Assembly: GCA_963665095.1 (NCBI GenBank)
Contig: OY762069.1
Coordinates: 928,001-992,000, forward strand
DNA length: 64,000 nucleotides
DNA from: an uncultured Desulfobacter sp.
Lineage (GTDB): Bacteria; Desulfobacterota; Desulfobacteria; Desulfobacterales; Desulfobacteraceae
Direction of reading: 5' to 3'
Under the pieces are notes generated by a model. That model was not told the origin of the DNA, ran no database searches, and saw nothing but the letters and a program-made list of their open reading frames with translations. Below are positions 14,207 through 39,354 of the stretch, piece by piece (positions within the stretch are counted from its first letter, which is position 1; the number at the start of each line of letters is the position of its first letter). The position numbers and the translations under genes are program-made.

Positions 14207-15211
14207 GTGCGACACGAGGTCGCATTATTGGCTGTTTGGCGGGCCAGTCGGTCCTGACCAAACCCGGCATTCTCCTGCCGGTACCCTATGTGGCATGCGG
14301 TTACCGGTGCATCCGGCAACGGTGTGAAGCCCAACCGACAAAGTACCGAATTCCGCAGGTGCGGAAGGGGTGGAAGCCGTGAGGCGGATACCCTCCTGGA
14401 AGCCTCATTCCGGGTGAGGGCAAGGGTTTGAATGATATGGTCAAATTAATTGAATGTTCCGTAAGTACCGTCAGGGAGAACAAGCTAAAGAGGCTGGTAA
14501 CCTTGGACCAAAAGGTGAGCGGTCAGGTTGCAGGTTTCTTAGCTGCCTGCACGTAGATGTTGCGCCGCCGGTGCTTAAGGACAGGCCTAAGTCATCCATT
14601 AATTGGCAATAATGTGGAACGTGGAAAGTCGGCCATGTCCCTATGGATAAGATGATCCTCACCAAATGTCTGGCTGCAGGGTTTATGGAAAATGGTAAGC
14701 TCTTTCCAACAGGTCGGGGGACACCCCAGGGAGGCATTGCCTCCCCGATACTTGCCAACATGGTTCTGGACGGCATTGAAGAAACTGCTAAATCCGTTGC
14801 ACCTGTCAGAGACCGGCGTAACGGTAAGGACATCAGTTCTAAAATCAACGTTGTCCGGTACACTGATGACTTCATCGTTACCGGTGCCACCCGGGAACTT
14901 CTTGAAGATAAGGTCAAACCGGCAATAATCAGCTTTCTTTCGGAACGGGATCTTTCCCTGTGATGCCAATCCTTTTGATCCGGAACACCAACAATACTTC
15001 CGGACAAGACGTGTGAAACCTAAGATGATCCCAGTCACAGCTGCCGAGGAAATATGTGATGGAATAACTGTAAATTTCAGTATTGGCAAGGGAAAACAGT
15101 CGGGCGGCCCCGCAAGGCTTAGTCTTAGAAATGCTTGAGCCGTATGACGGGAAACTGTCATGTACGGTTCTGAGGGGGGAAAGGAACTGTAAAGTTCCTG
15201 ACCTACCCGAT
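14207..15211 (+). mobile_element. CL/IIB-like group II intron, internally deleted; RT fragment at 14643-14963
   Basis: GTGCGACACG...domain V GAGCCGTATGACGGGAAACTGTCATGTACGGTTC...ACCCGAT; fragment has GTPQGGIASP and YTDD. Confidence 0.88.
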
Positions 15212-15280
15212 CGTTAAAAACCAACGGGATGCAAAAAAAGGCATATTGTAAATAGTATCACTCGGTGCTATATTATAGTC

Positions 15281-15649
15281 ATGCGAAAATTAATGACAAA
15301 GCACTTTGTGAAATGGGCTTCAAAGCAAAAAATACCAATCAATAATTTAGAAACAGCATTGGAAGAAGTCGGTAGCGGAAATTACGAAGCAAATTTGGGT
15401 GGTCACATTTACAAAAAAAGAATTCGTTTCCCTGGTCAAGGCAAAAGAGGTAGTGGAAGAACGATTGTTTGCTATGAAAAAGGAAGTAGAATCATTTTTA
15501 TCCATGGTTTCTCAAAAAATGAAAAATCAAACCTTTCACCCAAAGAGCTATTTGTCTTCAAGGAACTCGCTAAAATTTTACTTTCTTTTTCTGAAAGTGA
15601 AATTGATATAGCGGTCCAAAATGGTGATTTAAAAGAGGTGGCAACATGA
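15281..15649 (+). CDS. RelE/ParE-superfamily toxin (cassette gene)
   Basis: EANLGGHIYKKRI...GKRGSGRTI...FIHGFSKNEKSNL. Confidence 0.88.
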   Translation: MRKLMTKHFVKWASKQKIPINNLETALEEVGSGNYEANLGGHIYKKRIRFPGQGKRGSGRTIVCYEKGSRIIFIHGFSKNEKSNLSPKELFVFKELAKILLSFSESEIDIAVQNGDLKEVAT

Positions 15650-15951
15650 GAAAATCAATTTCAGATTCAATAACGGAAACCGTAAGGGACTTAAATAAAA
15701 GTGGCCTTGTGGATGACATCACTCTAAGAAATATAGAAAAATTATGTCTTCCGGAAGTTAAAGACTATTCCCCAAAAAAAATAACCGAAATTAGAAAAAA
15801 ATTTAATTTAAGCCAAGCCGCATTAGCAAGCGTTTTCAATATTAGCACCTCTACTGTACAGAAATGGGAACAGGGTAATAAAAAACCTACAGGAGCCTCA
15901 AGGAAATTGTTGGATATCATGGAAAGAAAAGGCTTAGAGGCTTTAATATAA
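15646..15951 (+). CDS. HTH-XRE antitoxin
   Basis: LSQAALASVFNISTSTVQKWEQGNKKPTG; ATGA overlap with the toxin. Confidence 0.88.
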   Translation: MRKSISDSITETVRDLNKSGLVDDITLRNIEKLCLPEVKDYSPKKITEIRKKFNLSQAALASVFNISTSTVQKWEQGNKKPTGASRKLLDIMERKGLEALI

Positions 15952-15955
15952 ATTC

Positions 15956-16708
15956 GCACAATAGGGGCAGGACTCCCCATTACTGAGGAGCCCTCCCACA
16001 CCATCCGGCATACGGATCTCGTACCAAGGCGGTTCGGCTGGTATGAATAAAATCAGTTGTAGGTTATCCCACCGATTTTATCGGGTTTTGGGCAAAGTCT
16101 TGCTATGGAAATTTCGGCCACTGCCGCATTATTCCCATAAAATCCTTTTACTTACTCACCACAACCATTTACCCAAGCCATTCGGCCCGGGTACCGTTCA
16201 GGCCTTCATCGGGGTGAGGCCTCCGGGTGTACTTCTCCCATGCGGTCAGGACCAGTTACCCGGCCCTCAGCCAATCCGGCACATGGGAGATCTCCCGGGG
16301 TAAACACGTGTCTTTCAGTACGTGAATGCCGGATTTACGGACATACCCTGTAATGGATAGAGGACTTCACCTTGTTGTGCAGGCTCGTCCAGGTATGTGC
16401 GCCTTATATCCGATTCCTGTACGTCATCCCGTACCTTCGTGGTACCTTGCCTCAGCAAGGCGGCTTCCTCCCGAAGCACCGTCACCGGTACCCCGTTGCA
16501 CTACCACTACACCCTTCGCCTCCATCCGGCTGGGTCTAAGACTTGCCAAAGGCATTGAAATCGTTTACGTTTGACTCACTTTTAAGAACACGTGCCGTGC
16601 CCGGCACACACAAAACGCTTCAGGTCGAAAGACCTTGGTTTCTGAAAAGAATTTAATTCGGGGAAGTCCTTGGTTTTAGTCTCCGGGCGGCTGAGCTCCC
16701 CGTTCTCG
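15956..16708 (+). other. attC site (~104 nt when reconstituted); R'' split by a IIC intron and R' followed by a CL intron
   Basis: GCACA|intron|ACAAAACGCTTCAG...GGGCGGCTGAGCTCCCC GTTCTCG. Confidence 0.75.
15961..16609 (-). mobile_element. ORF-less group IIC-attC intron (649 nt)
   Basis: Bottom strand starts GTGTGCCGGGCACGG; domain V GAACCGCCTTGGTACGAGATCCGTATGCCGG (CGC triad); ends CCCTAT; target TTGT/T. Confidence 0.88.
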
Positions 16709-17773
16709 GTGCGACACGAGGTCGCATTATTGGCTGTTTGGCGGGCCAGTCGGTCCTGACCAAACCCGGCATTCTCCTGCCGGTACCATAGGTGGCATGC
16801 GGTTCCCGGTGCATCCGGCAACGGTGTGAAGCCCAAACGACAAAGTACCGAATTCCGCAGCTGCGGAAGGGGTGGAAGCCGTGAGGCGGATACCCTCCTG
16901 GAAGCCTCAATCCGGGTGAGGGCAAGGGTTTGGATGATATGGTCAAAGTAGTTGAATGTTCCGTAAGTACCGTCAGGGAGAACAAGCTAAAGAGGCTGGT
17001 AAGCTTGGACCAAAAGGTGAGCGGTCAGGTTGCAGGTTTCGGAACTGGCTGCACGGAGATGTTGCGCCGCCGGTGCTTAAGGGCAGACCTAAGTCATCCA
17101 TAAATTGGCAATAATGCGGAACGTGGAAACCCCGTATCTTCGCCGGGAGTATTCGGCAGGTGAAACCGTAAGGCACACTGATGGAGGTGCGGGCGTAAGA
17201 TCCAGGAAAAAGCGAATGCCGTCTTGTAATGAGATGGATACGGATTGAGGCGTATATCCCCAACATTACCCGGCCCGAAAGGGAACTGACGTCCTGCGGG
17301 TGTGACTACAGACACACCCGGGCAGGTGTTTCTTTGTGAGAGAGTTTGGAGAATCTTTGAGGATGGGAAAGCAAATGACGGCAATGGCTGGTGCGCCCAT
17401 CAGCAGCTTTACGCTGTTAAAAGACTGTAGATACGTATCGCAAAGGTTGTTAAAGTAGCACACGGGATATACGCCAGAGGTTCTTTCAAAAGGATGCATT
17501 TTCTTTTGACTCGGAAAAAGAACAGTACTTTCCGAGAGAATGCTCAAGGACATATGCTATGAATTAACTGTAAATTTCATTATTGTCAGGGCCGTCTTGA
17601 AAATGCAGCCAAATCCCCGGTTTGAAAATGTATGTTCTTAGCTGGTTTTTCTTCTCTTAAAAATCAAATTTAAAAATTTCGTCTTCTTCATTTTTTTCCT
17701 TTCTTTGCCCTCTGCTTTTTTCCGTACATACTGATCTTATTCATGTCTGATTTGAATCGGAGGCAATATGTAG

Positions 17774-18340
17774 ATGGGACTACTCAAGAAAAGAAGGTGC
17801 CGAAATTGTAGAAGATTATTCGCTCCTAATCCAAGAAATATAGACTCTCAAAAATACTGTTCCAGATCTGAGTGCAGAAAAGCCAGCAAAAGGTGCAGCC
17901 AGAAAAAATGGCTGAACAAGCCTGAAAATCGAAACTACTTTTGTGGGCCTGCCCATGTTGAACGTGTTCAGGAATGGAGAAAGAAGAATCCCGGATATTG
18001 GAAGAAGACCAAAAGCCCAGATACGTTACAAGACTCGATATGTCCCCAACAGGCTGAAAATAAACAGGATTCAACGCAATTCATGGACAATGCGTTACAA
18101 GATTTCTTACGGGCGCAACCTCCTGTCATTATAGGGTTAATCGCCAACTTTACAGGCAGTGCGTTACAAGATGACATCGCTTCCACGCTCCTTCGTATGA
18201 AAAAATACGGGCAAGACATTTTATGTTCACAACCCCAAAAAGAAGGAGAGCAAAATGATTGCAAAGGCCCCCATTTTACCATCCAGGGTTCGAAAAACAC
18301 CCCAAAGCTTCAGTTGGATCGATCATCGCCTGGTGCGTGA
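17774..18340 (+). CDS. Hypothetical Cys-rich protein (IS21 passenger)
   Basis: CRNC...YCSRSEC putative Zn site; overlaps the next ORF. Confidence 0.7.
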   Translation: MGLLKKRRCRNCRRLFAPNPRNIDSQKYCSRSECRKASKRCSQKKWLNKPENRNYFCGPAHVERVQEWRKKNPGYWKKTKSPDTLQDSICPQQAENKQDSTQFMDNALQDFLRAQPPVIIGLIANFTGSALQDDIASTLLRMKKYGQDILCSQPQKEGEQNDCKGPHFTIQGSKNTPKLQLDRSSPGA

Positions 18341-18641
18341 ACGGCACATTGACAGGTGTACACACTCCCAGTCCGCCCTATATCTGTTTCTGGTGTGTGT
18401 GGCCGACAGTCAAGGCATCAGCTACTATGGAGATAAGGCGATCATGGATCGGCTGTGCATGGATTCTGATGGCCTGAAGACAGCACGTTCCGGGTTAATA
18501 CAGAATGGGCTGATTGCCTGGCAGAGACCTATTTACCAGGTGCTTGCCCTTGACCCTGCTCCTGGTAAATCAAAACGGCACGGCTCCATGCTGCGTCTTT
18601 CAGATATTCTAAAAGCAGCAGCGGAGGGCAACCATGATTGA
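18255..18641 (+). CDS. Hypothetical winged-helix-like protein (IS21 passenger)
   Basis: FSWIDHRL...ALYLFLVCVAD..G.SYY; overlaps the istA start. Confidence 0.7.
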   Translation: MIAKAPILPSRVRKTPQSFSWIDHRLVRERHIDRCTHSQSALYLFLVCVADSQGISYYGDKAIMDRLCMDSDGLKTARSGLIQNGLIAWQRPIYQVLALDPAPGKSKRHGSMLRLSDILKAAAEGNHD

Positions 18642-19608
18642 TTACGAAACCTATGTTCAAATCAGAAATTACTTTACCCGAGACGGCCTGACATACAGCC
18701 AGATTGCCAATGCCCTTGATCTGGACCCCAGGACAGTTGCCAGGTGGGCCAACCTGAAAAGGTACCAGCCCAGACAGTCAGCCCCCAGAGAAAGCAAGCT
18801 TGATCCGTATAAGAACGCCATCCTGCATATGCTTGAAAAACATCCCTACAGTTCCCGCCAGATATTTCAACGAATCACCCAGGATGGTTTTGCCGGGGGC
18901 ATCACCATTGTTGAGGATTATGTCAGGAAGGTGCGGCCGCCCAAAACAAAGGCGTATTTGAAACTGAGTTTTGCTCCGGGTGAAGCTGCCCAGGTGGACT
19001 GGGGTTCTTATAGTACAGTAAGGGTGGGCAACACGACCCGGCGGTTGAGCTTTTTTGTGATGGTGATGTGCCACAGCCGCATGATGTACGTTGAGTTCAC
19101 GGTCTCCCAGACCATGGAGCATTTTTTAGGCTGCCACCAGAATGCATTTGAGTTTTTTGGAAAGGTGCCGGAAAAGGTCATGGTGGACAATCTCAAATCC
19201 GCTGTTCTAAAAAGACTGCTGGGGAAAGCCCCGGTCTTCAACCCCAGATACCTTGATTTTGCAGATTATTACGGATTTACAATTGTTCCCTGTAATGTGC
19301 GCAAGGGTAATGAAAAAGGCCGGGTTGAAAATGCTGTGGGCTATGTCAAAAAGAATCTGCTCAACGGTCTTGAAATCCCTGATTTTAAGATCATGGAGCC
19401 CACCTGCAAACACTGGCTTGATACTGTCGCCAATGTCAGAACCCACGGAGAGACCGGTCAAAAGCCCGCATGAGAATGATCACAAAAAATCATGGAAAAA
19501 TTAAAGATAATTTGCAAGATATGCCAGGGATGAGGCAGAAGCTCCCCCGTTTATCTCGCAAATAATCAATGGAACTTCTGCCCCTATTACCCTAACAGGG
19601 CAGGAGAT

Positions 19609-20184
19609 ATGCTATCAGAACTTATTAAAAACAAAAATCTTTTTTTCCATCTTTACGAAATCGATAAAAATACAGCAAAACAGTACAGACAGTTGCCTTG
19701 TCCGCATTGTGGAGGCCCCTTATATTTCAGCAATTACATGCGCAAGCCCCGGGGAGAGCCTGAGGGCGTGCCGGAGGAATTCTTTATTCAGTTCAGCCTA
19801 TGTTGTGGAACCGAAGGGTGTCGCAAAAGATTGATGCCGCCGTCCTGCCGTTTTCTGGGGAGAAAAGTCTACTGGTTTGCAGTTATTCTGTGTGTTTTAA
19901 CAGACTGGCAAAATACCAATGAAAAAATCACCGTTTATGATTTGTCCATACGAACTGGCATTAGCCGGAACACAATAAACCGCTGGCTTGCCTTTTTTCA
20001 GGATACATTTCCAGTGAGCCGAACCTGGCGAAGGCTTCGGGGGCAGATATCCGCTGGTGTCAGTAACAGCCGTCTGCCGTCAAGTTTCATCAATTATTGC
20101 CGGGCGGTGAAATCCAACGCCGAAAACGCACTTGTATCAAGCCTGATAATCTTATCAGGCGGGTCCAAAATCAGGGCCGGATAA
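19609..20184 (+). CDS. Putative Zn-finger/HTH protein (DUF6431-like)
   Basis: CPHCGG...FSLCC...CRKR..P...RFLGRKVY...ISRNTINRW. Confidence 0.7.
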   Translation: MLSELIKNKNLFFHLYEIDKNTAKQYRQLPCPHCGGPLYFSNYMRKPRGEPEGVPEEFFIQFSLCCGTEGCRKRLMPPSCRFLGRKVYWFAVILCVLTDWQNTNEKITVYDLSIRTGISRNTINRWLAFFQDTFPVSRTWRRLRGQISAGVSNSRLPSSFINYCRAVKSNAENALVSSLIILSGGSKIRAG

Positions 20185-20290
20185 TCTCGCGCAGAGGATG
20201 AACATAGACAAATATATGCAGGCTGTTTTACCACCTGATTTCAGACGTTGATCCGAAATTTTAACCTGAAATTAAAAAGGAGCCTGATTT

Positions 20291-21736
20291 ATGAGTGGTA
20301 AAACACAGCACCCGGCAGACCTGTGGGCATTATTTCGCTTTTCGGTTATCGGCGGTTTACTGGCACGCCCTCCGGCAAAGGGAGAGTTGCAAAATGAACT
20401 GACCCGGCTCGCAGGTCAAATCTATTCTCATCCTGTGACGAACAAACCGACCTGTTTTCATTTTTCCACAATTGAGGCCTGGTATTACAGGGCAAAAAAT
20501 TGCCAGGACCCAATTCTGGCTCTGGGCCGTAAAGTTCGTTCAGATATGGGCAAATCCACAGCATTGAATGCTGAATTGATCCGCCTTCTTGGTGTCCAGT
20601 ACAACACTTATCCGCAATGGAGCTATCAGCTTCATTGCGACAACCTGGCAGCTGAAATCGCTGAACAGGGCCTGTGTGAGAATCCGCCGTCCTATGCAAG
20701 TGTGAGAAGGCGTATGGTTGAACGGGGTTGGAGAAAAAAGGCTTCCAAGAACAAAAATCAAACATCCGGACAGAAATCAGCTTTTAAGCGATTAGAAACG
20801 TATGAAGTCCGTAGTTATGAAACCGAAAACATCCATGAATTATGGCATCTGGACTTTCACGAATGCAGCAGGCGCGTGGTGGACGAAAAAGGTCAGTGGC
20901 ATACGCCCAAGGCATTGTGCATTCTTGATGATCGCTCCCGTCTGTGTTGTCATATTCAATGGTATTTGAATGAAACGGCAGAGGTTTTGATCCACGGCTT
21001 GTCCCAGGCGTTTTACAAAAGAGGGCTTCCCAGAGCCTTGATGACAGATAATGGTTCTGCCATGATTGCTCATGAAACCGGCAACGGACTTAAACGATTG
21101 GGCGTCAGTCATGAGACCACGTTGCCATACTCGCCCTATCAAAATGGGAAGCAGGAAGCCTTTTGGGGTACACTTGAAGGCCGTTTGATCGCCATGCTGA
21201 GCCGGATGGATTCTTTGACCCTGGTATATTTAAATCAGGTCTCCCAGGCCTGGATCGAGATGGAATACAACAAGTCAACCCATGATGAAATTCATATGTC
21301 GCCATTGCAATGCGCCCTTGACGGCAAGGATGTGTCACGTCCTGCACCGGAACCTGAACAGCTTCAATTTTCGTTTACAGCCTGTGAATCCAGAAAACAG
21401 CGTCTGTCCGATGGTACCATCTCTTTGATGGGCATCCGGTTTGAAATCCCTTCACGGTTTAATCATATCCAGCGTCTTCATGTCTGTTTTTGCTCCTGGG
21501 ATAAATCGGTTGCCTGGCTGATAGATAAACGAACCGGAAATAAGCTTGCCGCAATTTATCCCCAGGACAAGACAAAGAATGCTTCAGCAATCCGTCGTAT
21601 CAAATCCACTCCGGATGAAATTAACCCTGGCCATGAAACCCTGTCCGGATCAGAACCGGCCCTGCTTAAAAAGCTCTTGTCCGATTATGCAGCAACCGGA
21701 ATGCCTTGTGCCTACTTGCCAATGGAGGAAAAGTGA
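20291..21736 (+). CDS. DDE integrase-type (rve, Mu/TnsB-like) transposase
   Basis: ALFRFSVIG, WHLDFH, LDDRSR, RGLP.ALMTDNGSAM, PYSPYQNGKQE. Confidence 0.9.
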   Translation: MSGKTQHPADLWALFRFSVIGGLLARPPAKGELQNELTRLAGQIYSHPVTNKPTCFHFSTIEAWYYRAKNCQDPILALGRKVRSDMGKSTALNAELIRLLGVQYNTYPQWSYQLHCDNLAAEIAEQGLCENPPSYASVRRRMVERGWRKKASKNKNQTSGQKSAFKRLETYEVRSYETENIHELWHLDFHECSRRVVDEKGQWHTPKALCILDDRSRLCCHIQWYLNETAEVLIHGLSQAFYKRGLPRALMTDNGSAMIAHETGNGLKRLGVSHETTLPYSPYQNGKQEAFWGTLEGRLIAMLSRMDSLTLVYLNQVSQAWIEMEYNKSTHDEIHMSPLQCALDGKDVSRPAPEPEQLQFSFTACESRKQRLSDGTISLMGIRFEIPSRFNHIQRLHVCFCSWDKSVAWLIDKRTGNKLAAIYPQDKTKNASAIRRIKSTPDEINPGHETLSGSEPALLKKLLSDYAATGMPCAYLPMEEK

Positions 21737-22560
21737 TGAACAGCAAACGATTATTGGCTTATTATGGATTGAAGTACAATCCTTTTTTACCAAATATTCC
21801 TGTGGACTCATTATGGCATCCACCCCGGATGGAGGCATTTATTACACGCCTTGAAAATATGACCATGAACGGTGGATTTGCATTAATCGCCGGTGAACCC
21901 GGTCTTGGCAAATCCAAGACACTACAGGCGATTGCCCATCAGCTTGGCAAGCTTGATGAAGTCGTTGTCGGCGTTATGGAGCGCCCCCAAAGCAGCGTGG
22001 CCGATTTCTATCGGGAAATGGGGACACTGTTTGGTGTCAATTTGAGTCCGGCCAACCGTTACGGAGGGTTCAAAGATCTGCGGCAACGATGGAAAAATCA
22101 TATTAAAACAACCCTGTTCAGACCCGTCCTGCTCATTGATGAGGCTCAGGAAATGCTTACCGGATGCCTGAATGAGCTTCGGTTGCTCAACAGTATGGAT
22201 TTTGACTCCCAGAATTTATTGACCACCATTATCTGTGGTGATACCCGGCTGCCGGAACGGTTCAGAACCAGTGCATTGGTAGCCCTGGGGAGTCGACTCC
22301 GGTTCCGGTTAAAATTGGATCCTTATACCCGGGAAGAATTGTTGGATTATATAGCGCATTGCCTAAATCAGGCCGGAGCTCCTCAACTCATGACAAAACC
22401 TTTAATCACCGCTTTGGTAGAGCACTGTACAGGAAACTTACGGGTCCTCAATAATATGTCGGCAGAACTGCTTGAAGTGGGCGTTCAAAGAGAGCTGCCG
22501 CAACTGGATGAGAAACTTTTCATAGAGCTTTTTTCACTGAAACCGTCGCCAACCAGATAA
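21736..22560 (+). CDS. ExeA-like AAA ATPase (MuB/TnsC-like partner)
   Basis: YGLKYNPF; Walker A GEPGLGKS; Walker B LLIDEAQ. Confidence 0.88.
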   Translation: MNSKRLLAYYGLKYNPFLPNIPVDSLWHPPRMEAFITRLENMTMNGGFALIAGEPGLGKSKTLQAIAHQLGKLDEVVVGVMERPQSSVADFYREMGTLFGVNLSPANRYGGFKDLRQRWKNHIKTTLFRPVLLIDEAQEMLTGCLNELRLLNSMDFDSQNLLTTIICGDTRLPERFRTSALVALGSRLRFRLKLDPYTREELLDYIAHCLNQAGAPQLMTKPLITALVEHCTGNLRVLNNMSAELLEVGVQRELPQLDEKLFIELFSLKPSPTR

Positions 22561-22571
22561 GAGGTATAAAA

Positions 22572-22814
22572 ATGACAATCAATGAAACACAACTTGAAAA
22601 AACAATGGCTGAAATTGTCGACGAGCTGGGCAATCTGGTCATGGAGTTGATCCTTGTCAGTTTAAAAAAAATAAACTCGGAAAATCATCTTTTGACAGAA
22701 TTGCTGGAGATCAAACAAGAGGAACAAAGAGAAAATGAATTTTATGGTTTTGGTGAAACGGAGCCGGGACATCCTGGGGAGGAAACCCGGCAAGGGATAG
22801 CCAAAAGCAGGTAG
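22572..22814 (+). CDS. Small hypothetical protein inside the transposon
   Basis: GAGG RBS; 80 aa; 3' end overlaps the conserved structured element. Confidence 0.45.
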   Translation: MTINETQLEKTMAEIVDELGNLVMELILVSLKKINSENHLLTELLEIKQEEQRENEFYGFGETEPGHPGEETRQGIAKSR

Positions 22815-22933
22815 CATTGAATAATGCGCCGGGGGAAGCGGGGTTGACCTGCTTCCCCTTTCTGTATTATTCAAGCTTTCCTGCTCATGCCTTAAAAAAC
22901 CCAATAAAATCAGTCGGAGCGCAGCGACATCTG
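22752..22933. ncRNA. Candidate structured RNA/DNA element, copy 1
   Basis: Closely similar to 37533-37707, with compensatory changes in the hairpins. Confidence 0.5.
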
Positions 22934-23645
22934 CTAATCATTGAAAATACAGTTATGCCTTTCCCTGATTTATCCTGATTGTCGCTCCATTGATTATCGT
23001 GCTTCCTCTCAGCAGAGATGTATGCCCTGGAATTGCCCCACCTATACCCTCTGCCGTCAGAACCCTATGATATCGGTGTGGTAAAGCAGGTACGGGCTTC
23101 AAGACAGTACAGGGTAGTCATCGATACAAATGCTTACACAGTACCCGCCCAGCTGGCAGGGGTGGCTTTGACTGCCAAGCTTTACCCTGATCGGATCTGC
23201 TTTTACCATGAAGACAAGTTGGTTGCCCGCCATGTCAGATCCTATGGCCGCAAAAACGACCTTGAAGATCCTGATCACTCTAAAATCCTTTTGAGCCAGC
23301 GCAAAAAGGCCAGAGACCAGGCAATTTATATGCGTTTTTTAAGCCTCTCTGACAAGGCCCGGGAGTATTACAGGCAATTGCAGAACAGGCGGCTTAACGC
23401 CTCCCATCATGTACGGCAAATCGTGGCCTTGAGTGAAATCTACTCCCGGGAACAAGTTGCCATGGCCATTGAAGATGCCTTTAAGTTCTCTGCATTCTCA
23501 TGTGAATACATCGCCAACCTCCTTGAGCAGCGGGTTCGGTCTCCCCAGGAGCCCGGAGCCCTGCATGTTACACATAAAGCAGATTTACTGAACCTGACAA
23601 TCCAGGAGCCTGATCTTAATATTTATACCGCCATAGGAGATAAAA

Positions 23646-24380
23646 ATGCCTGATCTTGAGAAATGCCTGTCCCACTTAAAACTACCTTATATCAGGGAAA
23701 ACTATGAGTCAGTGGCTACCCTGGCTGCCCAGAAGCAATGGAGCCACGTTCAATATCTATCAGAGCTTGCCAGGCATGAATCACTACTGCGCCATGATAA
23801 AACCATCCAGCGCCGTATCCGTATGGCCAAGTTCCCGGTAATCAAAACCCTGGACCAGTTCAACTGGTCATGGCCCAGAAAAATCAATCAGGCTCAGATC
23901 CAGAATCTGTTCAGACTCAAGTTCATTGAAGAAAAGGGTAACATTATCGTGATCGGCCCGGTCGGTGTTGGGAAAACACATATTGCGACTGCTTTAGGTT
24001 ACCAGGCCTGCCTGAAAAACCATACGGTTCTGTTCTCTTCTGCCATTGATATCGTCAACAATCTGGTGGCAGCCCAGAAGGCGGGTCAGTTAAAGCAGGA
24101 ACTGAGAAAATACCTCAAGCCAACTTTGTTGATCATGGATGAACTGGGCTACCTGCCCATTGACAAGATTGGGGCAGACCTGTTGTTCCAAATTATCAGT
24201 CAGCGCTATGAGCAAGGAGCCATCATAATAACCACAAACCGGGTGTTCAAAGATTGGCCGGAGATCTTCAACAATGACATGACATTAACATCAGCTTTGC
24301 TGGACAGGCTTCTTCACCACACCGAGCCTGTGGTCATTGAGGGTAAGAGTTTTAGAATGAAAGATGTGACGGAAGAATAA
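23646..24380 (+). CDS. istB: IS21 helper ATPase IstB
   Basis: GPVGVGKT, LIMDELGY, ALLDRLLHH, IEGKSFR. Confidence 0.95.
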   Translation: MPDLEKCLSHLKLPYIRENYESVATLAAQKQWSHVQYLSELARHESLLRHDKTIQRRIRMAKFPVIKTLDQFNWSWPRKINQAQIQNLFRLKFIEEKGNIIVIGPVGVGKTHIATALGYQACLKNHTVLFSSAIDIVNNLVAAQKAGQLKQELRKYLKPTLLIMDELGYLPIDKIGADLLFQIISQRYEQGAIIITTNRVFKDWPEIFNNDMTLTSALLDRLLHHTEPVVIEGKSFRMKDVTEE

Positions 24381-24654: not shown

Positions 24655-24915
24655 ATGGGCCAAATAGAAAAGCTATTAAATGAAATTTCCAATAATCCAG
24701 CCAATGTAAAATTTACAGATCTATGCAGGGTCTGTGAACATTATTTTGGAAAGGCTCGTCAATCTGGTAGCAGTCATCGAATATATAAAACCCCGTGGCA
24801 AGGTGACCCTCGGGTAAATATTCAGAACAACAAGGGAAAAGCAAAAGCCTATCAAGTTAAGCAAGTGATCAAGGCTATTGAAAGATTGGAGGTAGGAAGT
24901 GACACTACAAAATGA
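24655..24915 (+). CDS. hicA: HicA-like toxin (cassette gene)
   Basis: GSSHRIYKTPWQGDPRVNIQ...KAYQVKQV. Confidence 0.85.
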   Translation: MGQIEKLLNEISNNPANVKFTDLCRVCEHYFGKARQSGSSHRIYKTPWQGDPRVNIQNNKGKAKAYQVKQVIKAIERLEVGSDTTK

Positions 24916-25228
24916 TCATTATACATATAGGGTTACTTGGTCTCCCGAGGACGAAGAATATATCGGCTTATGCGTGGAATTCCCAAGTTTAAGCTGGCTG
25001 GCCAAATCTCCTGAGTCTGCATTAAAAGGTATTCGTAAGACGGTAGAGTCGGTCATTCAAGACATGAAAGACAATGATGAAAAAATTCCCCAACCAATCG
25101 CTTCAAAAAATTATAGTGGTAAATTTATGGTTCGTGTTCCACCCGAAGTTCATAGAAGTTTAGCGATCCAAGCAGCAGAATCAGGGGTAAGTATAAATAG
25201 GCTCGTTAGTTCTCGTCTCAGTCAATAA
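24899..25228 (+). CDS. hicB: HicB-like antitoxin
   Basis: YIGLCVEFPSLSW...YSGKFMVRVPPEVHR.LA..AAE.GVSIN. Confidence 0.9.
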   Translation: MTLQNDHYTYRVTWSPEDEEYIGLCVEFPSLSWLAKSPESALKGIRKTVESVIQDMKDNDEKIPQPIASKNYSGKFMVRVPPEVHRSLAIQAAESGVSINRLVSSRLSQ

Positions 25229-25462: not shown

Positions 25463-25825
25463 ATGAGCCAACTTTTAATGGAGGCCCATCATATGTCAGA
25501 AACAGAGAAGAAAAACCAAAAACTAACCCAGTTCTGGAAGTACCACATTAAACAATGGTCTGAATCGGGTATGTCCCAAAATGCATACTGCAGGCAAAAT
25601 GATTTAAGACCCAATCAATTTACATACTGGAAAATGAAATTCAAAAGCCAGGCACTTGTTCCAGAATTCGTCCAGGTCCCTTCAACGCAGATCAGCCAGG
25701 CGCTAAGCCTTTCTGAACGAAAAGGCTTAGCGTTGAATACAGATAACGGATTTCAGATCGAAATACCGGATGGCTTTTCCCAAACAACCCTGGCCCAGGT
25801 GCTTCAAGTATTGAGGCGGTGCTGA
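25463..25825 (+). CDS. tnpA: IS66 accessory protein TnpA
   Basis: W..HI..W..SG.SQ..YC HTH; first ORF of IS66. Confidence 0.85.
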   Translation: MSQLLMEAHHMSETEKKNQKLTQFWKYHIKQWSESGMSQNAYCRQNDLRPNQFTYWKMKFKSQALVPEFVQVPSTQISQALSLSERKGLALNTDNGFQIEIPDGFSQTTLAQVLQVLRRC

Positions 25826-26178
25826 TGTTTTCTTCCACCCAGAATTTAAAAATTCATATCGCACTTGGAAACACTGATATGCGCAAGGCCATTGATGGGC
25901 TATCCATACTTGTGAGCGAAAAATTAAATTTGGATCCATTTTCGGGACACATGTTTGTATTCTGTAACCGGAAACGGAATATATTGAAAATCCTGTATTG
26001 GGATCGCAATGGATTCTGTCTTTGGCACAAGCGCTTGGAAAAGGATTATTTCCAATGGCCCAAGTCAAAAGAACAGATTTTGACCATCGGAGCAAAAGAG
26101 CTTTCCTGGCTGATGGACGGACTTTCTATTCGTCAGGAAAAAGCACATAAATCATTAAAATATTCGGCTGTTTTTTGA
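25819..26178 (+). CDS. tnpB: IS66 accessory protein TnpB
   Basis: TDMRKAIDGL...FVFCNR...KILYWDRNGFCLWHKRLE. Confidence 0.95.
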   Translation: MLMFSSTQNLKIHIALGNTDMRKAIDGLSILVSEKLNLDPFSGHMFVFCNRKRNILKILYWDRNGFCLWHKRLEKDYFQWPKSKEQILTIGAKELSWLMDGLSIRQEKAHKSLKYSAVF

Positions 26179-26190
26179 TCATAAAAACTG

Positions 26191-27816
26191 GTGAAAACCG
26201 CGTGGTTATGGTATATACAACGCATGAATAAAGAGGCTTTTGCAGACATAAATGACGTTGAGAAATTAAAAGAAATGATGGCTTGTTTTGTCAATGATTT
26301 TTCAGATAGAGAGCACAATTATAAAGCCGAAATCAAAATTCTCAACGAACAGATTAAAAGCCTTCGGGACCAACTTTTTGGTAAAAAGACAGAAAAAATC
26401 CATAAGGATGACGGTCAACTATCCCTTTTCGATACTTTTGAGCCGGAAACTCCCATATTGGACGAACCCGAAGATATCAGCGTGCCTGCCCATAATCGAA
26501 AGAAGCCAGGGTGCAGGCCTTTGCCTGAAAACCTTCCACGGGTTGAAGTGATCCACGATCTGACCGAGGAAGAAAAAATATGTGCCTGTGGCTGCATGAA
26601 ATCCCGTTGCGGCAAAGAAGAATCTGAACAGCTTGAAATTATTCCGGCACAAGTGAGAGTAATCAGAAACATTCGTTATAAATACGCTTGCAAAAACTGC
26701 GAAGGTGTTGACGATGATGGGCCAACAGTGTCCATTGCCAGAATGCCGGAACAAATGATCCCCAAGAGCATCGCAACCCCAGGGCTTTTGGCCCATATCC
26801 TGACAGCCAAATTTGCAGATGCTTTACCCTTCTACCGGCAGGAAAAACAGTTTAACCGAATTGGAGTAGACATCCACAGGTCCAATATGTGCAATTGGGC
26901 TATGAAAGTGGCCCAGGCCTGTGAGATCCTGCTGGAATATATGAGGGATGAAATCCTTAAAGGCCCAGTGATAAATATTGACGAAACAACAGTCCAGGTT
27001 CTTAAAGAACCCAAACGGTCAAAATGCTATATGTGGGTGTTCAAAGGAGGGGCACCGGATAATCCCATTATTCTGTTCCAGTATCACGCAACTCGATCCG
27101 GGGATGTTGCCCGGAATTTTTTGAACGATTATCAAGGTATTGTCCAGACGGATGGCTATGCTGGCTATGACTTTCTTGATCATATCGTGGGAATTATTCA
27201 TATTGCGTGTTGGGTACACGCACGTCGAAAGTTCATGGCTGTGTCCAAAGCTGCCGGAAATAAAAATGGCAACCCGACGGGAATCGCAGGCAAAGCCCTG
27301 AAGTACATCAGCAAGTTATATAAAATAGAGAAAGAGGCCAAAGAACTTGGTTTGTCTGCTGAGGGACTTTACCGGAAAAGACAGGAACTATCCTTGCCTA
27401 TCCTTGATGAATTTAAAAAATGGTTGGATGCTCAAGTTGAAAAGGTACCGCCCAAAAGTCTTCTTGGTAAAGCCATTAACTACACCCTTAATCAATGGCA
27501 TAGATTGGTTCTGTATACGGCAAGTGGTCTGGTAATGCCGGATAATAATGTAGTCGAAAATGCCATAAGACCCTTTGTGGTGGGCAGAAAAAATTGGTTG
27601 TTTTCATGTACACCTGCGGGCGCCGATGCCAGTGCCTGCATTTACAGCCTGATCGAAACAGCCAAGGCCAATGGACTTGAACCTTACTGGTACCTCAAAT
27701 TTCTCTTTGAAAATTTACCGGAAGCCATGACAGAGGACGAATTCAAAGCCTTGATGCCACAAAACGTAGATAAACATTTGCTGGAATCCAACTATACAAC
27801 ACCCCGTCAGGCTTAA
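26191..27816 (+). CDS. tnpC: IS66 transposase TnpC
   Basis: LPFYRQ, IDETT, QTDGYAGY, CWVHARRKF, DNNVVENAIRP. Confidence 0.95.
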   Translation: MKTAWLWYIQRMNKEAFADINDVEKLKEMMACFVNDFSDREHNYKAEIKILNEQIKSLRDQLFGKKTEKIHKDDGQLSLFDTFEPETPILDEPEDISVPAHNRKKPGCRPLPENLPRVEVIHDLTEEEKICACGCMKSRCGKEESEQLEIIPAQVRVIRNIRYKYACKNCEGVDDDGPTVSIARMPEQMIPKSIATPGLLAHILTAKFADALPFYRQEKQFNRIGVDIHRSNMCNWAMKVAQACEILLEYMRDEILKGPVINIDETTVQVLKEPKRSKCYMWVFKGGAPDNPIILFQYHATRSGDVARNFLNDYQGIVQTDGYAGYDFLDHIVGIIHIACWVHARRKFMAVSKAAGNKNGNPTGIAGKALKYISKLYKIEKEAKELGLSAEGLYRKRQELSLPILDEFKKWLDAQVEKVPPKSLLGKAINYTLNQWHRLVLYTASGLVMPDNNVVENAIRPFVVGRKNWLFSCTPAGADASACIYSLIETAKANGLEPYWYLKFLFENLPEAMTEDEFKALMPQNVDKHLLESNYTTPRQA

Positions 27817-28383
27817 AAAGGTGCGGTTGATACACCGCTTACCATTATTCCCATAAAATCCTTCTACTTACTCACCACAACCATTTACCCAAGCCATTCG
27901 GCCCGGGTACCGTTCAGGCCTTCATCGGGGTGAGGCCTCCGGGTGTACTTCTCCCATGCCAGGGAGGCCCGGCTCGTTTCCTCCGACTACTATGCCCTCT
28001 GCTGACTTCTCCCATGCGGTCAGGACCAGTTACCCGGCCCTCAGCCAATCCGGCACATGGGAGATCTCCCGGGGTAAACACGTGTCTTTCAGTACGTGAA
28101 TGCCGGATTTACGGACATACCCTGTAATGGATAGAGGACTTCACCTTGTTGTGCAGGCTCGTCCCGGTATGTGCGCCTTATATCCGATTCCTGTACGTCA
28201 CCCCGTACCTTCGTGGTACCTTGCCTCAGCAAGGCGGCTTCCTCCCGAAGCACCGTCACCGATACCCCGTTGCACTACCACTACGCCCTTCGCCTCCATC
28301 CGGCTGGGCCTAAGACTTGTCAAATGCTTTAAAATTCATTACATTTGACTCACTTTTAAGCTCACGTGCCGTGCCCGGCACAC

Positions 28384-28508
28384 ACAAATCGCTGGAGAGG
28401 GACCAGGCTTACTGCGCGGCCTTTCGGGAGGGCCTGGTTCAGGAAATTTTATCTTTTTATCGGGAGTTTTTGGGTTTAAAAGCCTGGCCCCTCAGCTCCC
28501 CGTTAACT
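28384..28508 (+). other. attC body (R'' begins at 25234; ~130 nt when reconstituted)
   Basis: ACAAATCGCTGGAGAGGGACCAGGC...GCCTGGCCCCTCAGCTCCCC GTTAACT. Confidence 0.85.
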
Positions 28509-28851: not shown

Positions 28852-28860
28852 GGGCAAACA

Positions 28861-34421: not shown

Positions 34422-34884
34422 AATCGATAACGTCTAAATATTACCAATCGCTTGAATCTGAAAGCATTTACGTCTAAAAAGGCCTCTGTTTAGTTGTAAT
34501 ATTTAATCGCCAAAAAAAAGAAAACACCACCACAGAGGCCTTATGCACGAGAAAAATATCAAGCGACTCATCACAAATCAATTGAATAAAAAAAATTCCC
34601 GAACTGGAAAAGGATGCCAAAGAAGTCCAAAAAAGAGCTGACAAAACAAATCATGATAGAAGTTGAAGGCAATTATTATTCTCAGAGCCTGGTGTAGATT
34701 CCCGAAATAATCTGAACAAAAACCCGCCAAATTTTTCATATTAAATTGACAAAGTTCCATTTTTCTCAAATTATCCTGTACAGGTTCTGATCAAAGCATT
34801 CTGACAAAAATGAAAAGGGCGAAAAGCTTTGCAGAGCCTCGCCCTTAAGACCGGGATTTATAAAATCCCAAAACAACCATAAAA

Positions 34885-35331
34885 ATGATAATAAAGGTCA
34901 AAGCTGATATCAAGCAAATTTTCAAGCAGGGCAAAAATTTTACATGGCCAAAACCGTCACGATGTCCACATTGCAACGACTCCAGGCTGTGGGGACACGG
35001 CTTTGTACTCTCCTTTTTTGATGGATTTGATCAAGGGGTGTATTTGAAGCGATATCGCTGCCCCTATTGCAAAACCGTATTCAAATTGAAGCCATATGGT
35101 TTTTTCAAGAGGTTCCAGGCCAGTATCTGGCAAATCCTTACCAGCATTATGAGTCGTCTATACACAGACCGGTATCTGCCGGAACTCTCCTGGAGTCGAC
35201 AGCATTTTTGGTTTACTGCATTGAAACGAAATATAGCGGCCTACCTGTCCAACAGTTGGGACAAAGGTGTGGTTGCTGGTTTTATCAAGCTAATCGGTAT
35301 GGGTAAAATCCCGGTTACCAGTTCAATTTAA
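34885..35331 (+). CDS. Putative Zn-finger protein (DUF6431-like)
   Basis: CPHC....WGHG...RYRCPYC. Confidence 0.75.
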   Translation: MIIKVKADIKQIFKQGKNFTWPKPSRCPHCNDSRLWGHGFVLSFFDGFDQGVYLKRYRCPYCKTVFKLKPYGFFKRFQASIWQILTSIMSRLYTDRYLPELSWSRQHFWFTALKRNIAAYLSNSWDKGVVAGFIKLIGMGKIPVTSSI

Positions 35332-35434
35332 CCATGGGGCTGGATCAGGTTTAAACCACCCTACCGAAGGCTGTGATTTACCGAAGGATCATACTGTCAT
35401 ACAAGCCCTTAGAACCAAATTTTAAGGAGGAAGT

Positions 35435-36691
35435 ATGACAGAAAATCAGAAAAAAGAGGTTGCCGTGTTCAGGTTTGGGGTCATTTGTGAATTTGTGACC
35501 GGAACAAATTTTGATTACGGTGAAAAAGAACGAATTTTACAGCAGAAGTGCGCCCGCAAATGGTCCATCCCGTATTCTGGAAGGACCAGGCTTTCCAGAA
35601 GTACGATTCTGGGATGGGTCCGGCAGTATAACGGTCGAATAGAGTCTCTTTACCCCAAAGACCGTTCAGACCAGGGAAAATCAAGGGTATTCGATGACGA
35701 GACTGCATCTCAACTAATCAAACTCCGGTTAGACCAGCCTGATGCGACAGTCGATACATTGATCTGTTCACTTCAAAAAACTACATGCCAGACATACAGT
35801 CCATCCAGTGTATACCGTTTTTTACGCGGCCGGGGGCTAATGAACACGGCCCGGCCAGAGGATAGAAGAAAGTTTGAAGCCCCGCACCCCAATGATATGT
35901 GGCAAAGCGACGTCATGCACGGCCCTACAGTCCTGGTTCAGGATAAGCAAAGAAAAACGTACCTGATTGCCATTATGGACGATCATTCCAGGCTGGTTAC
36001 GGCTGCAGGTTTTTATTTATCTGAGAATCTGAAGACCTATCTTATGGTGCTGGAGCAGGCTTTTTTGAGCCGTGGGCTTCCCCGCAAGCTGTATGTAGAT
36101 AACGGTCCTGCGTTCAGATCCCATCATTTAAAATATGTAGCAGCGTCTCTGTCCATCGCTTTAATCCATGCAAGGCCATATAAGCCCCAGGGGAAAGGTA
36201 AAATCGAGCGCTGGTTCAGAACGGTTCGGCTTCAGTTTCTGCAAAGATTTACAGGTAAGACCCTGGATGATCTGAATGGGGCATTTGAGAAGTGGCTTCA
36301 TAATGAGTACCATCAGCGTAAACACAGCTCCACAGGCGAATCACCGTTTAAAAGATTTACCTCGGCCATGGAGTGCATCCGTACCGCCCCACCGGATCTG
36401 AAAGACCACTTCCGCAAAACCGCCCGGCGCAAGGTGGCAAAGGACCGAACCATCACCCTTGACGGCAACATGTTTGAGGCCCCGGTTGCGCTGATCGGCA
36501 GACATGTGGATGTAAAGTACCATGAGGACACCCCTTTGCAGGCTGAAGTTATCTATAAAGCAAAGTCTTATGGCTTGTTAACCCCGGTGGACCTTGCTGT
36601 GAACTGTCGGGTCAAGCGGCACCGCTGGAACGAAAATGATATCCGGATTATGCCTGAACCCTCAAATTACAAGGGAGGGCAACTGTTATGA
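35435..36691 (+). CDS. DDE integrase-type (rve, Mu/TnsB-like) transposase
   Basis: AVFRFGVI, WQSDVMHG, MDDHSR, RGLPRKLYVDNG, PQGKGKIERWF. Confidence 0.92.
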   Translation: MTENQKKEVAVFRFGVICEFVTGTNFDYGEKERILQQKCARKWSIPYSGRTRLSRSTILGWVRQYNGRIESLYPKDRSDQGKSRVFDDETASQLIKLRLDQPDATVDTLICSLQKTTCQTYSPSSVYRFLRGRGLMNTARPEDRRKFEAPHPNDMWQSDVMHGPTVLVQDKQRKTYLIAIMDDHSRLVTAAGFYLSENLKTYLMVLEQAFLSRGLPRKLYVDNGPAFRSHHLKYVAASLSIALIHARPYKPQGKGKIERWFRTVRLQFLQRFTGKTLDDLNGAFEKWLHNEYHQRKHSSTGESPFKRFTSAMECIRTAPPDLKDHFRKTARRKVAKDRTITLDGNMFEAPVALIGRHVDVKYHEDTPLQAEVIYKAKSYGLLTPVDLAVNCRVKRHRWNENDIRIMPEPSNYKGGQLL

Positions 36692-37497
36692 GTGAAATGT
36701 ATCGTACCTTTTTTGGCTTATATAGGGAGGCCTTCCCGGCGCAGATAGAAATCAATGATATCCTGGTCACCCCGGAGGTCTCGGGCGTTAAAAATCGGAT
36801 TGATTATTCCTTAAGACTTGGTTGCAGTGCGGTTATCACAGGGGATGTGGGCAGCGGAAAGTCCACCGCCTTAAGGTATGCCGCCTCATCCCTACACCCT
36901 TCGGAATACAAAGTCTTTTATGTTACGGCCTCAAGCGGTTCCATCATGGAACTTTACCGGCAGATTGTTGAAGAACTGGGCATAGAGCGGACATCGACGT
37001 CCCGCGCTGTTATGATCTCCATTATTAAAAATGAAATACGTGAATTCGTCCTGGGAAAAAAGATCAAAACCGTTTTGATTATAGATGAGGCATCTCTGCT
37101 TCGCATGGAAGTCTTTGCCGAACTTCACACCCTGGTTCAATTTGAAAAAGACGCCATGCCCTGGCTGCCTGTGATCCTTGCAGGTCAGCCGACATTGATA
37201 GATAAGCTTCAGTACCGGACGTCAATCCCGTTTGCATCCAGGATTGTGGCTAAAAGCCATCTGGATGGTCTGGATGTGGCTGGAATGAAAACTTACCTGA
37301 TCCATCATTTAAAACTATGCGGTGTTGACACCAACTTTTTTTCTGACCAGGCGGTGACTGCGATTCATCAAGGCTCCGGCGGCCTTTTACGAAAGGCGAA
37401 TAATCTTGCCAGAGGCTCATTGATTGCTGCTGCGGCAGAAAAATCAATGACGGTATCTGCAGAGCATGTCCGCATTGCTTCATCGGAAATTTTTTAA
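36688..37497 (+). CDS. ExeA-like AAA ATPase
   Basis: FFGL...F; GDVGSGKS; LIIDEAS; ILAGQP. Confidence 0.9.
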   Translation: MSEMYRTFFGLYREAFPAQIEINDILVTPEVSGVKNRIDYSLRLGCSAVITGDVGSGKSTALRYAASSLHPSEYKVFYVTASSGSIMELYRQIVEELGIERTSTSRAVMISIIKNEIREFVLGKKIKTVLIIDEASLLRMEVFAELHTLVQFEKDAMPWLPVILAGQPTLIDKLQYRTSIPFASRIVAKSHLDGLDVAGMKTYLIHHLKLCGVDTNFFSDQAVTAIHQGSGGLLRKANNLARGSLIAAAAEKSMTVSAEHVRIASSEIF

Positions 37498-37532
37498 GAA
37501 AAAACAGCCATAGAGCAGAATATTACGATTTC

Positions 37533-37707
37533 GGTGAAACGGAGCCGGGCTCTGCTGAGGAGCAACCTGGTAAGGGATAGCCGGAAGCAGGCAGCATTGA
37601 ATAATGCGCCAGGGGAAGTGGGGATTACCTGCTTCCCCTTTCTGCTTTATTCAAGCTGTTCTGCCTATGCCTTAAAAACCTACTGAGAAGGAGCGCAGCG
37701 ACTTCTG
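37533..37707. ncRNA. Candidate structured RNA/DNA element, copy 2
   Basis: Homologous to 22752-22933; no ORF at this copy. Confidence 0.5.
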
Positions 37708-39354
37708 TAGCTGTCTTAAATAATATGGAAAAGATTTAATCTGTTCAAAATAATTAGAAAATTTAAGTCAGGATAAAATGCGACTCAACACTGGATGTTC
37801 CTATCGAAGAACTCATCGGGATTCAAGATCAGACATTCTCAGCTGGCATTCGTAGCCTTTCTGAGATGGCATCCTATATTGAAAGTTTTCATTCAGAAAA
37901 CTTGTTTCATTTTGATACCTTGAAAAAGTCATATCCGGAAATTGTAGACCCGGAATTGCAGTTTATTGATCAACTGATAGACAATCAGATCATCAACAGC
38001 TTGATTACACCCGACAGCTATTCCGCCCCGCACAGGGATATTCAGCCATATCAGTTGTTTCGATGGAGCTTTTAAAAATAATCAAATACCCAGAGATCAG
38101 TTACAGAAAATTTTGCAGCGACAAGTATTTTGGTAGAGAACGAAAGCAAAACCGGCGTTTTGTGAGACTGCCTTTAAAGACTAAACTTCAGGCTGACCAT
38201 ACTGAATTGTGTCATTTTCGGCGTAGCCTGAATTTCACACAACTAATGAATGTCCTGGTGTATTTTTTCCATCATTTTTATAAATCTGGTTGTCTTGAAA
38301 GCGCGGTTATTCATGGCGTTGATTCTACTGAGTTGCCATCAGAGATCAACTATCCCCTTTGCACAATTAAGATCAAAGGCAAAAAGGTACGAATCTATTC
38401 CGACATGGATTGTGATTGTGGAAAGCGCCGGAAGAAAAGAGATAAGTCGTATTATGTTATTGGCTATCGGCTTCACACCCTGACAGCTATCAATCCATTG
38501 ACTGGCCATAGCTTTCCTTTGGTATCCCTTGTGGGGGCAGCCAATCATCATGACAGCCTGTTTTTAAAACCTTTGATAAAGCTTGCTCAGGCATTAGGCA
38601 TTGATATTAAGTTGATAACGGCCGATCAGGCTTATCACGATAGTGACGGTTCTACTCTTAATGACACCGGAGTTTATATTGTCGCCCCTGCATCAGAGAA
38701 AACGAAACTACCTGAAAATGTATTAGAATCACCCTTGAGGGTTACCTGTAATGATTCATGCGAGTTCCCAATGAAGTATTTGGGGACAACACAGGACGGC
38801 CATGAATTTGGCTGCGGTACAACACCAGGTGAGTGTATGTTCGAATCAAGATCCCCCAAATCAAGAGTCCTGGCTTTTGATAGTGGTTATTTCCAGCCAA
38901 TGCCGACGTTTCATCAAGGTTCTCAAGAAGCAATCGAGATTCGGAAGAACTGTGAACGTCCTTTCAATTTGATGAAAAAAAGGGAAGGCTTCGAACAAAC
39001 AAGGGTAAGAAGCCAGCATGCTGTAGTTGTTCGATCAGCGTTGACAACAATTGTAACCTTGTTGCTTGAAATGGCTGGTACAAGGCAGAAGCCTCAGAAA
39101 AAATATAATAAACAAAGGGAGTTGTTTGCAGCCACAGGATAAATCAAAAAATTCGACATTGAATTTTTCATAAAACCGATAGCTCGGACAATACCGGTAT
39201 ATCTGAAACCTCACCAAGGCCGTTTCATAAGATGAAAACACGCGGTAAAAATCAAATTCAGATTATACGACGGTAAAAATGAACTACTGGATTTTGAAAA
39301 AGAAAAAATTCAAACCTGTGAGGCAATTATAACTCCGTTATGATTTAAATAGTG

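Follow-up and report, generated by a model that had tools for sequence, protein, structure and literature searches.

The stretch of DNA analysed here, hereafter the window, comprises 64,000 nucleotides of the genome of an uncultured Desulfobacter sp. (assembly GCA_963665095.1, contig OY762069.1, positions 928,001 to 992,000 of the forward strand). It carries a transposon of 3541 bp (window 19471-23011), with TGAG as first and CTCA as last bases, that splits the istA gene of an IS21-family element. The transposon has four open reading frames (ORFs), encoding a zinc-ribbon protein (orf1), a DDE transposase, an AAA+ ATPase and a small protein (orf4), and a structured non-coding module of about 190 nt (22745-22930) near its right end (Table 1). 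An earlier first-pass annotation had delimited the element and its first three ORFs. The fourth ORF and the module come in addition, as do a left-end fragment and 12 more full copies elsewhere in the genome.

Boundaries, copies and proteins of the transposon

The interrupted host is an IS21-family element by both of its genes (istA, 261 bits on NF033546; istB, 269.5 bits on NF038214). Excision of the transposon together with one GCA restores an istA frame of 491 codons. This frame is kept when 0, 3 or 6 additional bases are removed, so that it does not by itself fix the length of the target duplication. The length at this site is fixed by 14 copies of the same IS21 element in the same genome that lack the insertion and show exactly a 3-bp overlap. 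The same empty joint is found in Logan contigs of four out of four sequencing runs (skip of 3544, three letters fitting both sides). In total, the 6.9-Mb genome, assembled in one contig, contains 13 full copies of the transposon, 12 of them identical and one at 96.7%, plus one left-end fragment of 350 bp; the identity of 12 copies therefore indicates a recent spread. In the 96.7% copy (G000:C1:3784154-3787695), orf1 is the most diverged gene: its amino-acid identity is 90%, and that of transposase and ATPase 98%. The element is also found, there with a 7-bp duplication, inside a second copy of its host IS21 (G000:C1 near 1462587-1466127). The ATAATCAATGG-like repeats of the left end are also present at the ends of relatives.

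The transposase contains three invariant acidic residues, D188, D253 and E289, presumably its catalytic triad. A profile built from 26 sequences gave ShTnsB as top match (E 1.6e-12). The predicted structure (mean predicted local distance difference test, pLDDT, of 81) was also closest to ShTnsB (E 1.9e-18), with a chain of the TnsABCD transpososome ranking sixth, IstA eighth (E 4e-14) and MuA twelfth. The ATPase is an AAA_22/ExeA-like protein with invariant Walker A and B motifs and is nearest to MuB and TnsC: its profile (18 sequences) matched 8xvb, a target activator of MuB type (E 3.7e-11), as well as ShTnsC (E 7e-6), and IstB was not among the 60 matches listed. In direct comparisons, IstB aligned over Walker A only (probability 25) and TniB reached a probability of 77.

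orf1 combines a four-cysteine zinc ribbon (C31, C34, C66 and C71, all invariant) with a following helix-turn-helix (HTH) in a fold predicted with a pLDDT of 87.5. It lies upstream of the transposase in 77 of 79 related loci drawn from genome contigs, the two misses being short contigs. Neither orf1 nor orf4 matched Pfam or NCBIfam, and a profile search of the PDB with orf1 returned a single match (E 0.67). No TnsA and no resolvase or recombinase were recognised among the four ORFs with Pfam and NCBIfam. The limits, GCA duplication, restored istA frame and three ORFs of the first-pass annotation are confirmed, as are the Mu/TnsB-like nature of the transposase and the ExeA type of the ATPase.

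Table 1 Features of the transposon, its host element and the sister transposon (window coordinates)
Feature	Position	Strand	Remarks
Host IS21-family element (target, outside the transposon)	18634..24380	+	istA split 19470/23015; istB 23646-24380
Target duplication, left copy GCA	19468..19470	+	3-bp overlap in empty host-IS21 copies (n=14)
Entire transposon, 3541 bp, almost certainly of Tn6049 type	19471..23011	+	13 full genome copies
Left end	19471..19574	+	TGAG terminus, imperfect inverted repeat of ~25 bp
Additional ATAATCAATGG-like repeats of left end	19485, 19506, 19561		Putative transposase binding sites
Inverted repeat 5′ of orf1	19534..19582	+	Possible operator or leader hairpin; similarly placed inverted repeat in Tn6049
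orf1, 191 aa	19609..20184	+	C4 zinc ribbon then HTH; homologue of Tn6049 orf1
TnsB-like DDE transposase, 481 aa	20291..21736	+	D188, D253, E289 invariant
MuB/TnsC-like AAA+ ATPase, 274 aa	21736..22560	+	AAA_22, ExeA-type; Walker A/B invariant
orf4, 80 aa	22572..22814	+	Last ~22 codons overlap module core; 55-70-aa ORFs in same slot of relatives
Module core, ~60 nt	22747..22807	+	Three helices around purine-rich internal loop; GRGG loop
Module long hairpin	22808..22885	+	Terminator-like tip 22831-22859
Module conserved tail box	22886..22925	+	CATGCCT, A-run, CCC; C-GNA-G mini-hairpin 22919-22925
Right end	22961..23011	-	TGAG at terminus; repeats GATAATCAATGG and GATAAATCAGGG
Target duplication, right copy GCA	23012..23014	+	From sequence flanks
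Remote sister transposon, 3098 bp	34693..37790	+	14 copies; CxxC protein, DDE, AAA_22; module core 37528-37587

Relation to Tn6049 and variability of the duplication

Among plasmids, the closest matches of the transposase belong to a multicopy element of Cupriavidus metallidurans CH34 (48.6% identity over 95%), whose ends agree with the inverted repeats of 12 bp that PMC4739549 gives for Tn6049. Tn6049 is described in PMC2864759 as a 3.5-kb element in 12 copies, with an ATPase resembling general-secretion ATPases and a frequent location near genomic islands. In addition, "Tn6049 related transposons" were tabulated in 2012 under the columns Mob prot, TnpA, ATPase and UF, Desulfobacterium autotrophicum included (PMC3414803, Table S5), and the four genes described here follow this order (Mob prot, TnpA, ATPase, small ORF of unknown function). 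The orf1 profile matched Tn6049 orf1 with a probability of 100 (E 3e-41), and homology to the Tn6049-type ATPase was recovered by phmmer. The two elements share a size of about 3.5 kb, the gene order, a homologous orf1, TG…CA ends with short imperfect inverted repeats, 12-13 copies per genome, a variable duplication (4-7 bp for Tn6049 in our measurements) and a frequent nearness to other mobile DNA. They differ in their ends (TGTG/CACA in Tn6049, TGAG/CTCA here), in orf4, which shows no evident likeness, in the module, which Tn6049 lacks, and in duplications that extend down to 3 bp here. The element is almost certainly a Tn6049-type transposon, and thus a new member of a named, little-studied type. 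The view that it represents a distinct, poorly characterised family accordingly holds for the second adjective and fails for the first, since its architecture had been tabulated in 2012, Desulfobacteraceae included. A literature search to which the naming paper and most subscription papers were closed found no mechanistic study of the Tn6049 family.

The wider relatives are the type V-K CAST core (CAST, CRISPR-associated transposon; ShTnsB/ShTnsC), phage Mu (A/B) and Tn5053/Tn402 (TniA/TniB), with which the element has in common a TnsB-fold DDE transposase, a MuB/TnsC-type AAA+ ATPase, TG…CA ends with repeated sites and the lack of TnsA. Unlike them, it encodes no recognisable TniQ and no Cas12k or resolvase, has an additional zinc-ribbon/HTH gene, makes duplications of 3-7 bp instead of 5 bp and belongs to a type with an optional primase/helicase or structured module. 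Membership of Tn5053/Tn402, whose members have a resolvase gene and a res site, was rejected, as none of the four ORFs is a recombinase. In PMC11406308, Tn7-like elements are defined by TnsB and TnsC plus TnsA and/or TniQ; here, TnsB- and TnsC-type proteins are present and only one of 13 copies has a 5-bp duplication.

IS21 elements resemble the transposon in their DDE transposase with AAA+ helper, their TG…CA ends and their variable duplication length. They differ from it in that its ATPase is of the AAA_22 type and does not match PF01695, and in its four genes; IS21 membership was rejected, as no protein matched the IstB helper (PF01695/NF038214) and the 37 bits of the transposase on NF033546 fall short of the cutoff of 160 bits. 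Likewise rejected was IS481, the RefSeq label of the Tn6049 transposase (NF033577, 89.9 bits against a cutoff of 224; four genes, not a single transposase gene).

The longest flanking repeats of the 13 copies measured 3 bp (three copies), 4 bp (two, one of them in a T-run), 5 bp (one), 6 bp (five) and 7 bp (one), the remaining copy having a near match only. Those of 3, 6 and 7 bp are supported by empty copies or paralogues. A similar spread was found at 11 distinct Tn6049 sites (4 bp at five, 5 bp at one, 6 bp at two, 7 bp at one, two unmatched), at all nine sites of a Desulfospira element (3 bp at two, 4 bp at one, 5 bp and 6 bp at three each) and at all four of a Spirochaetia element (3 bp at one, 4 bp at three). 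Planctomycete elements had a 5-bp duplication at five of ten sites, the rest being unmatched. Three Isosphaeraceae copies (L056, L057 and L060) have 5-bp flanks that match crosswise and not within a copy, by recombination between copies or mis-assembly, and were left out of the evidence. Hence, the 3-bp duplication of the first-pass annotation, which comparison of filled and empty sites upholds here, is a property of this one site and not a family trait, the family range being 3-7 bp.

No target consensus was evident among the 13 insertion sites, and no replichore orientation bias was seen (five leading, eight lagging). The flanks are somewhat AT-richer than random windows (GC 0.45 versus 0.487, p 0.0035, uncorrected). 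In addition, nine of the 13 copies, where 1.8 were expected, have the host IS21 or the sister element at most 20 kb away, and two of the nine are inside IS21. Selection can explain this clustering as well as targeting.

Across the 79 related loci, the three-gene core is constant and the content downstream of the ATPase varies. Among 14 post-ATPase proteins run on Pfam, four were RepB-type primases, two CHC2/Toprim primases and three AAA_25 helicases. Where ends could be defined, these primase or helicase genes lie inside the ends of multicopy Desulfospira, Isosphaeraceae and Spirochaetia elements. Short inverted repeats (GTTCCC…GGGAAC) follow the helicase gene in L049, L056, L067 and L081; in L056, they precede a further short ORF that looks CHC2 zinc-finger-like by eye.

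A structured non-coding module near the right end

In the element studied here, the module lies downstream of the ATPase gene. Close to its right end, a second transposon of the window has a similar sequence, about 80% identical to bases 22737-22933 (approximate limits). This sister transposon has TGTAG…CAACA ends and a transposase and an ATPase only 27.6% and 22.6% identical to those of the first. Its duplications are of 5 bp (seven copies), 4 bp (six) or absent (one), and one copy, of 4417 bp, contains an insertion.

An exact pattern of the module core matched 119 metagenome loci, out of an estimated 720 or so. The core alignment comprised 100 distinct cores (two from the window and 98 of the 117 distinct cores from these loci), and its invariant columns are a consequence of the exact-pattern construction. 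In the three helices, 96.8% of the cells are paired, with 235 cells changed on both sides, a result equalled by none of 500 shuffles; pairing fell to at most 49% when partners were slid. The number of pairs showing compensatory change, 11, was no better than in shuffles (50/500), and G-U pairs are frequent. After the core come a variable long hairpin, terminator-like in 46 of 98 module loci, and then the conserved box, found in 98 of 111 loci. A C-GNA-G mini-hairpin follows this tail box in 37 of 94 loci versus 3.4% of shuffles. On the 5′ side, 31 of 115 loci have a sigma-70-type promoter pair whose end lies 9-12 nt ahead of the core; the corresponding count was 0-3 in each of 11 other windows, and shuffles averaged 2.0 (maximum 6). 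The promoter of our own copy scores poorly (6 against a threshold of 10), and this copy may rely on read-through.

With Rfam 15, no family reached its gathering score for the element or for 20 module loci, and only sub-threshold chance matches were seen. Likeness to the hammerhead, TPP, SAM-I and group I intron folds was rejected from the order of elements and from Rfam. A 7-nt primosome-site motif is present in our own hairpin and absent from those of relatives, and was dropped. No description of the module was found in a literature search to which most subscription papers were closed. The module is a well-supported structured motif that is not in Rfam.

In the Desulfobacter genome, the module model gave 27 matches, all in the element (13) or the sister transposon (14). 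Matches occur in three of 151 genomes of the phylum and in nine of 41 relatives. Within the Tn6049 family, the full module is present in nine loci, eight without a replication gene and one after a helicase; it was not found in nine primase-bearing loci (59 sources searched), nor in Tn6049. Among 65 module loci with at least 600 bases upstream (eight from the family set), an ATPase of our own type precedes the module in 15, one of the sister type in 19 and other sequences in 31. Pfam analysis of 54 neighbouring ORFs identified IS3-type, ISL3, IS110 and DUF1670 genes and AAA_25 helicases, and tblastn convergent istB genes. Modules sit within element ends that are recognisable by their motifs, and both orientations and both ends are represented. 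The model also matched two Microviridae genomes (57.4 and 53.5 bits, on the gene strand) and a 3986-bp Mob_Pre plasmid (42.5 bits), records absent from model building, as well as a sequence directly 3′ of an IS110 gene (59.1 bits). In viral contigs, the strict pattern had no match and the relaxed pattern two, both unannotated, at contig ends and uninformative.

Several variants were noted. Four loci (L118, L125, L145 and L152) have two tandem DUF1670 genes with the module directly downstream. A divergent subtype (L045:6690-6747, L229, L230 and L236) has a different inner hairpin and tail and occurs in several copies in each of two congeneric genomes (seven and nine matches). Only the inner hairpin, in a shorter frame, follows the helicase gene in L047, L049 and L082. 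The inner hairpin is also found alone beside the mobilisation genes of plasmid pOR1 (L247; 31.9 bits).

As for the surroundings, the host IS21 (about 15 copies) has two additional ORFs upstream of istA (window 17774-18641), encoding a CxxC-rich protein of 188 aa and one of 128 aa, neither with a Pfam or NCBIfam match. A third IS21 copy (near 5489882-5491407) is broken at almost the same position by a different insertion of about 1.5 kb. Inspection by eye of the neighbourhood (window 14300-17400 and 27900-29300) showed reverse-transcriptase-like fragments (14643-14963) and repeated non-coding segments. Toxin-antitoxin-like small gene pairs (15281-15951, 24655-25228 and 28558-29232), also recognised by eye, surround the element, and an IS66-like element lies at 25463-27816.

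Candidate transposition route and role of the module

We propose a TnsB- and MuB/TnsC-like transposon, with no recognisable TnsA, TniQ or resolvase, that would move replicatively into sequence-unspecific targets with a loose stagger of 3-7 bp and use its module for priming. On balance, we lean towards this account as a whole. The replicative route itself is probable, because no TnsA is encoded and because, according to PMC11406308, the Shapiro intermediate of TnsA-less relatives is replicated into a cointegrate, which a recombinase or host recombination can then resolve. The transposase would bind the repeated end motifs and nick the 3′ ends only. The ATPase would load onto the target with no sequence-specific selector to guide it, perhaps preferring AT-richer, element-rich regions, and the two strand transfers would be coupled less rigidly than in Tn7, giving duplications of 3-7 bp. 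Replication through the element would then yield a cointegrate to be resolved by host recombination. The slot 3′ of the ATPase gene would aid this replication, here through the module, as a priming signal or primer RNA, and in some relatives through a gene for a primase or a helicase. orf1, with its zinc ribbon and HTH, may be a DNA-binding regulator or an end-binding cofactor. One Tn6049 copy has a left flank known elsewhere and a new right flank (L217 versus L223), which is what an adjacent rearrangement would give.

A priming role of the module is tentative. It is suggested by the replication proteins that are its alternatives in the slot, by its presence in elements, and in replicons, that pass through single-stranded or circular stages (IS3, ISL3, IS21 and IS110 elements form circles, and microviruses have single-stranded or circular stages) and by the immateriality of its orientation. 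Single-strand initiation (ssi) signals are known in mobile replicons and in single-stranded DNA (ssDNA) phage genomes. Like the ColE1-type ssi signals (PMC5935869), to which it is likened by description, the module is a non-coding stem-loop structure in a mobile replicon; it differs from them in having a covarying core of three helices, in many loci together with a promoter. The broader idea of a portable priming device, either a primer RNA or a promoter-exposed folded ssDNA signal, swapped among insertion sequence (IS) families, ssDNA phages and small plasmids, with one slot of Tn6049-type elements filled by the module or by an own primase, is more speculative still.

Several observations weigh against the proposed account. 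Both module and primase are lacking in many members of the family, among them Tn6049, so that neither can be essential. The module also follows helicase genes (L054, L106 and L132), and the loci are related, so that the mutual exclusion of primase and module carries no statistical weight. With an identity of 99.6% to each other, the two microvirus regions count as one event among 50,697 phage records; their modules lack the tail box and overlap the end of an annotated ORF. The RepA of the plasmid has no Pfam match, which leaves rolling-circle replication unsupported. The positioned promoters suggest an RNA, with the poor score of our own copy again to be noted. Finally, the presence of the module in the circle-forming IS3, ISL3, IS21 and IS110 elements speaks for another route, an IS21-like copy-out/paste-in. 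There, the ends would be joined as a circle whose junction integrates with a variable stagger, and the module or primase would prime the second strand. The variable duplications, the absence of an encoded resolvase and the rank of IstA among the fold matches of the transposase would fit such a circle, which we nevertheless consider rather unlikely: transposase and ATPase are both nearer to TnsB, MuB and TnsC than to IstA and IstB, and abutted ends were found neither in metagenome contigs (Desulfobacteraceae-type end pattern only) nor in contigs of four of the 20 runs listed, a weak test and no proof of absence, as assembled contigs drop rare forms.

The promoter pairs placed before the core, together with the frequent G-U pairs and the terminator-like hairpins, bear on the module itself, which may be a small RNA with a regulatory or catalytic function (an attenuator, a ribozyme, or an antisense or protein-binding RNA) hitch-hiking in element ends and unrelated to priming, the transposon core then working as proposed above. 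By eye and in some folds, pairing is moreover possible between the tail box and the 3′ strand of the internal loop, both being too invariant for covariation. Such an RNA is a serious possibility, about as likely as the priming role. Its occurrence in either orientation and at either element end, mostly with no downstream gene to regulate, and the absence of an Rfam match argue against it, as do the C-GNA-G mini-hairpins, which are stable as DNA and not as RNA hairpins. For orf1, the first-pass annotation had suggested a TniQ-like targeting or regulatory factor; as a targeting factor, it would be a selector of TniQ type within a Tn7-like element that has 3 bp as its characteristic duplication. 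The nearly constant position of orf1 before the transposase, its four invariant cysteines, its HTH, the TnsC-like ATPase next to it and the clustering of insertions near other elements are compatible with that role. On the other hand, duplications vary, with no common target sequence or replichore bias, the orf1 profile did not match Tn402 TniQ (probability 0.2), and the Pfam families of 80 homologues, of which 25 out of 36 were listed, included no TniQ. In fold searches, Foldseek returned nothing at E≤0.001, and VIA gave generic zinc ribbons and HTHs (best Z 4.5) with no TniQ among the 50 matches listed, an absence that does not exclude likeness. A TniQ-like orf1 thus appears very improbable; the regulatory role offered alongside it is still plausible.

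The new elements of this work are 3-7-bp duplications in a TnsB-type system and a covarying module common to several mobile-element families. A TnsB-type enzyme with such a stagger departs from the 5-bp rule and offers a probe of target-capture geometry. Host restart proteins are usually credited with starting replication on such intermediates of transposition. As relatives alternate between primase, helicase, module and nothing in one slot, the question of how this replication starts becomes testable by slot swap. If the idea of a portable priming device is true, replicative transposons would encode a priming step usually left to the host.

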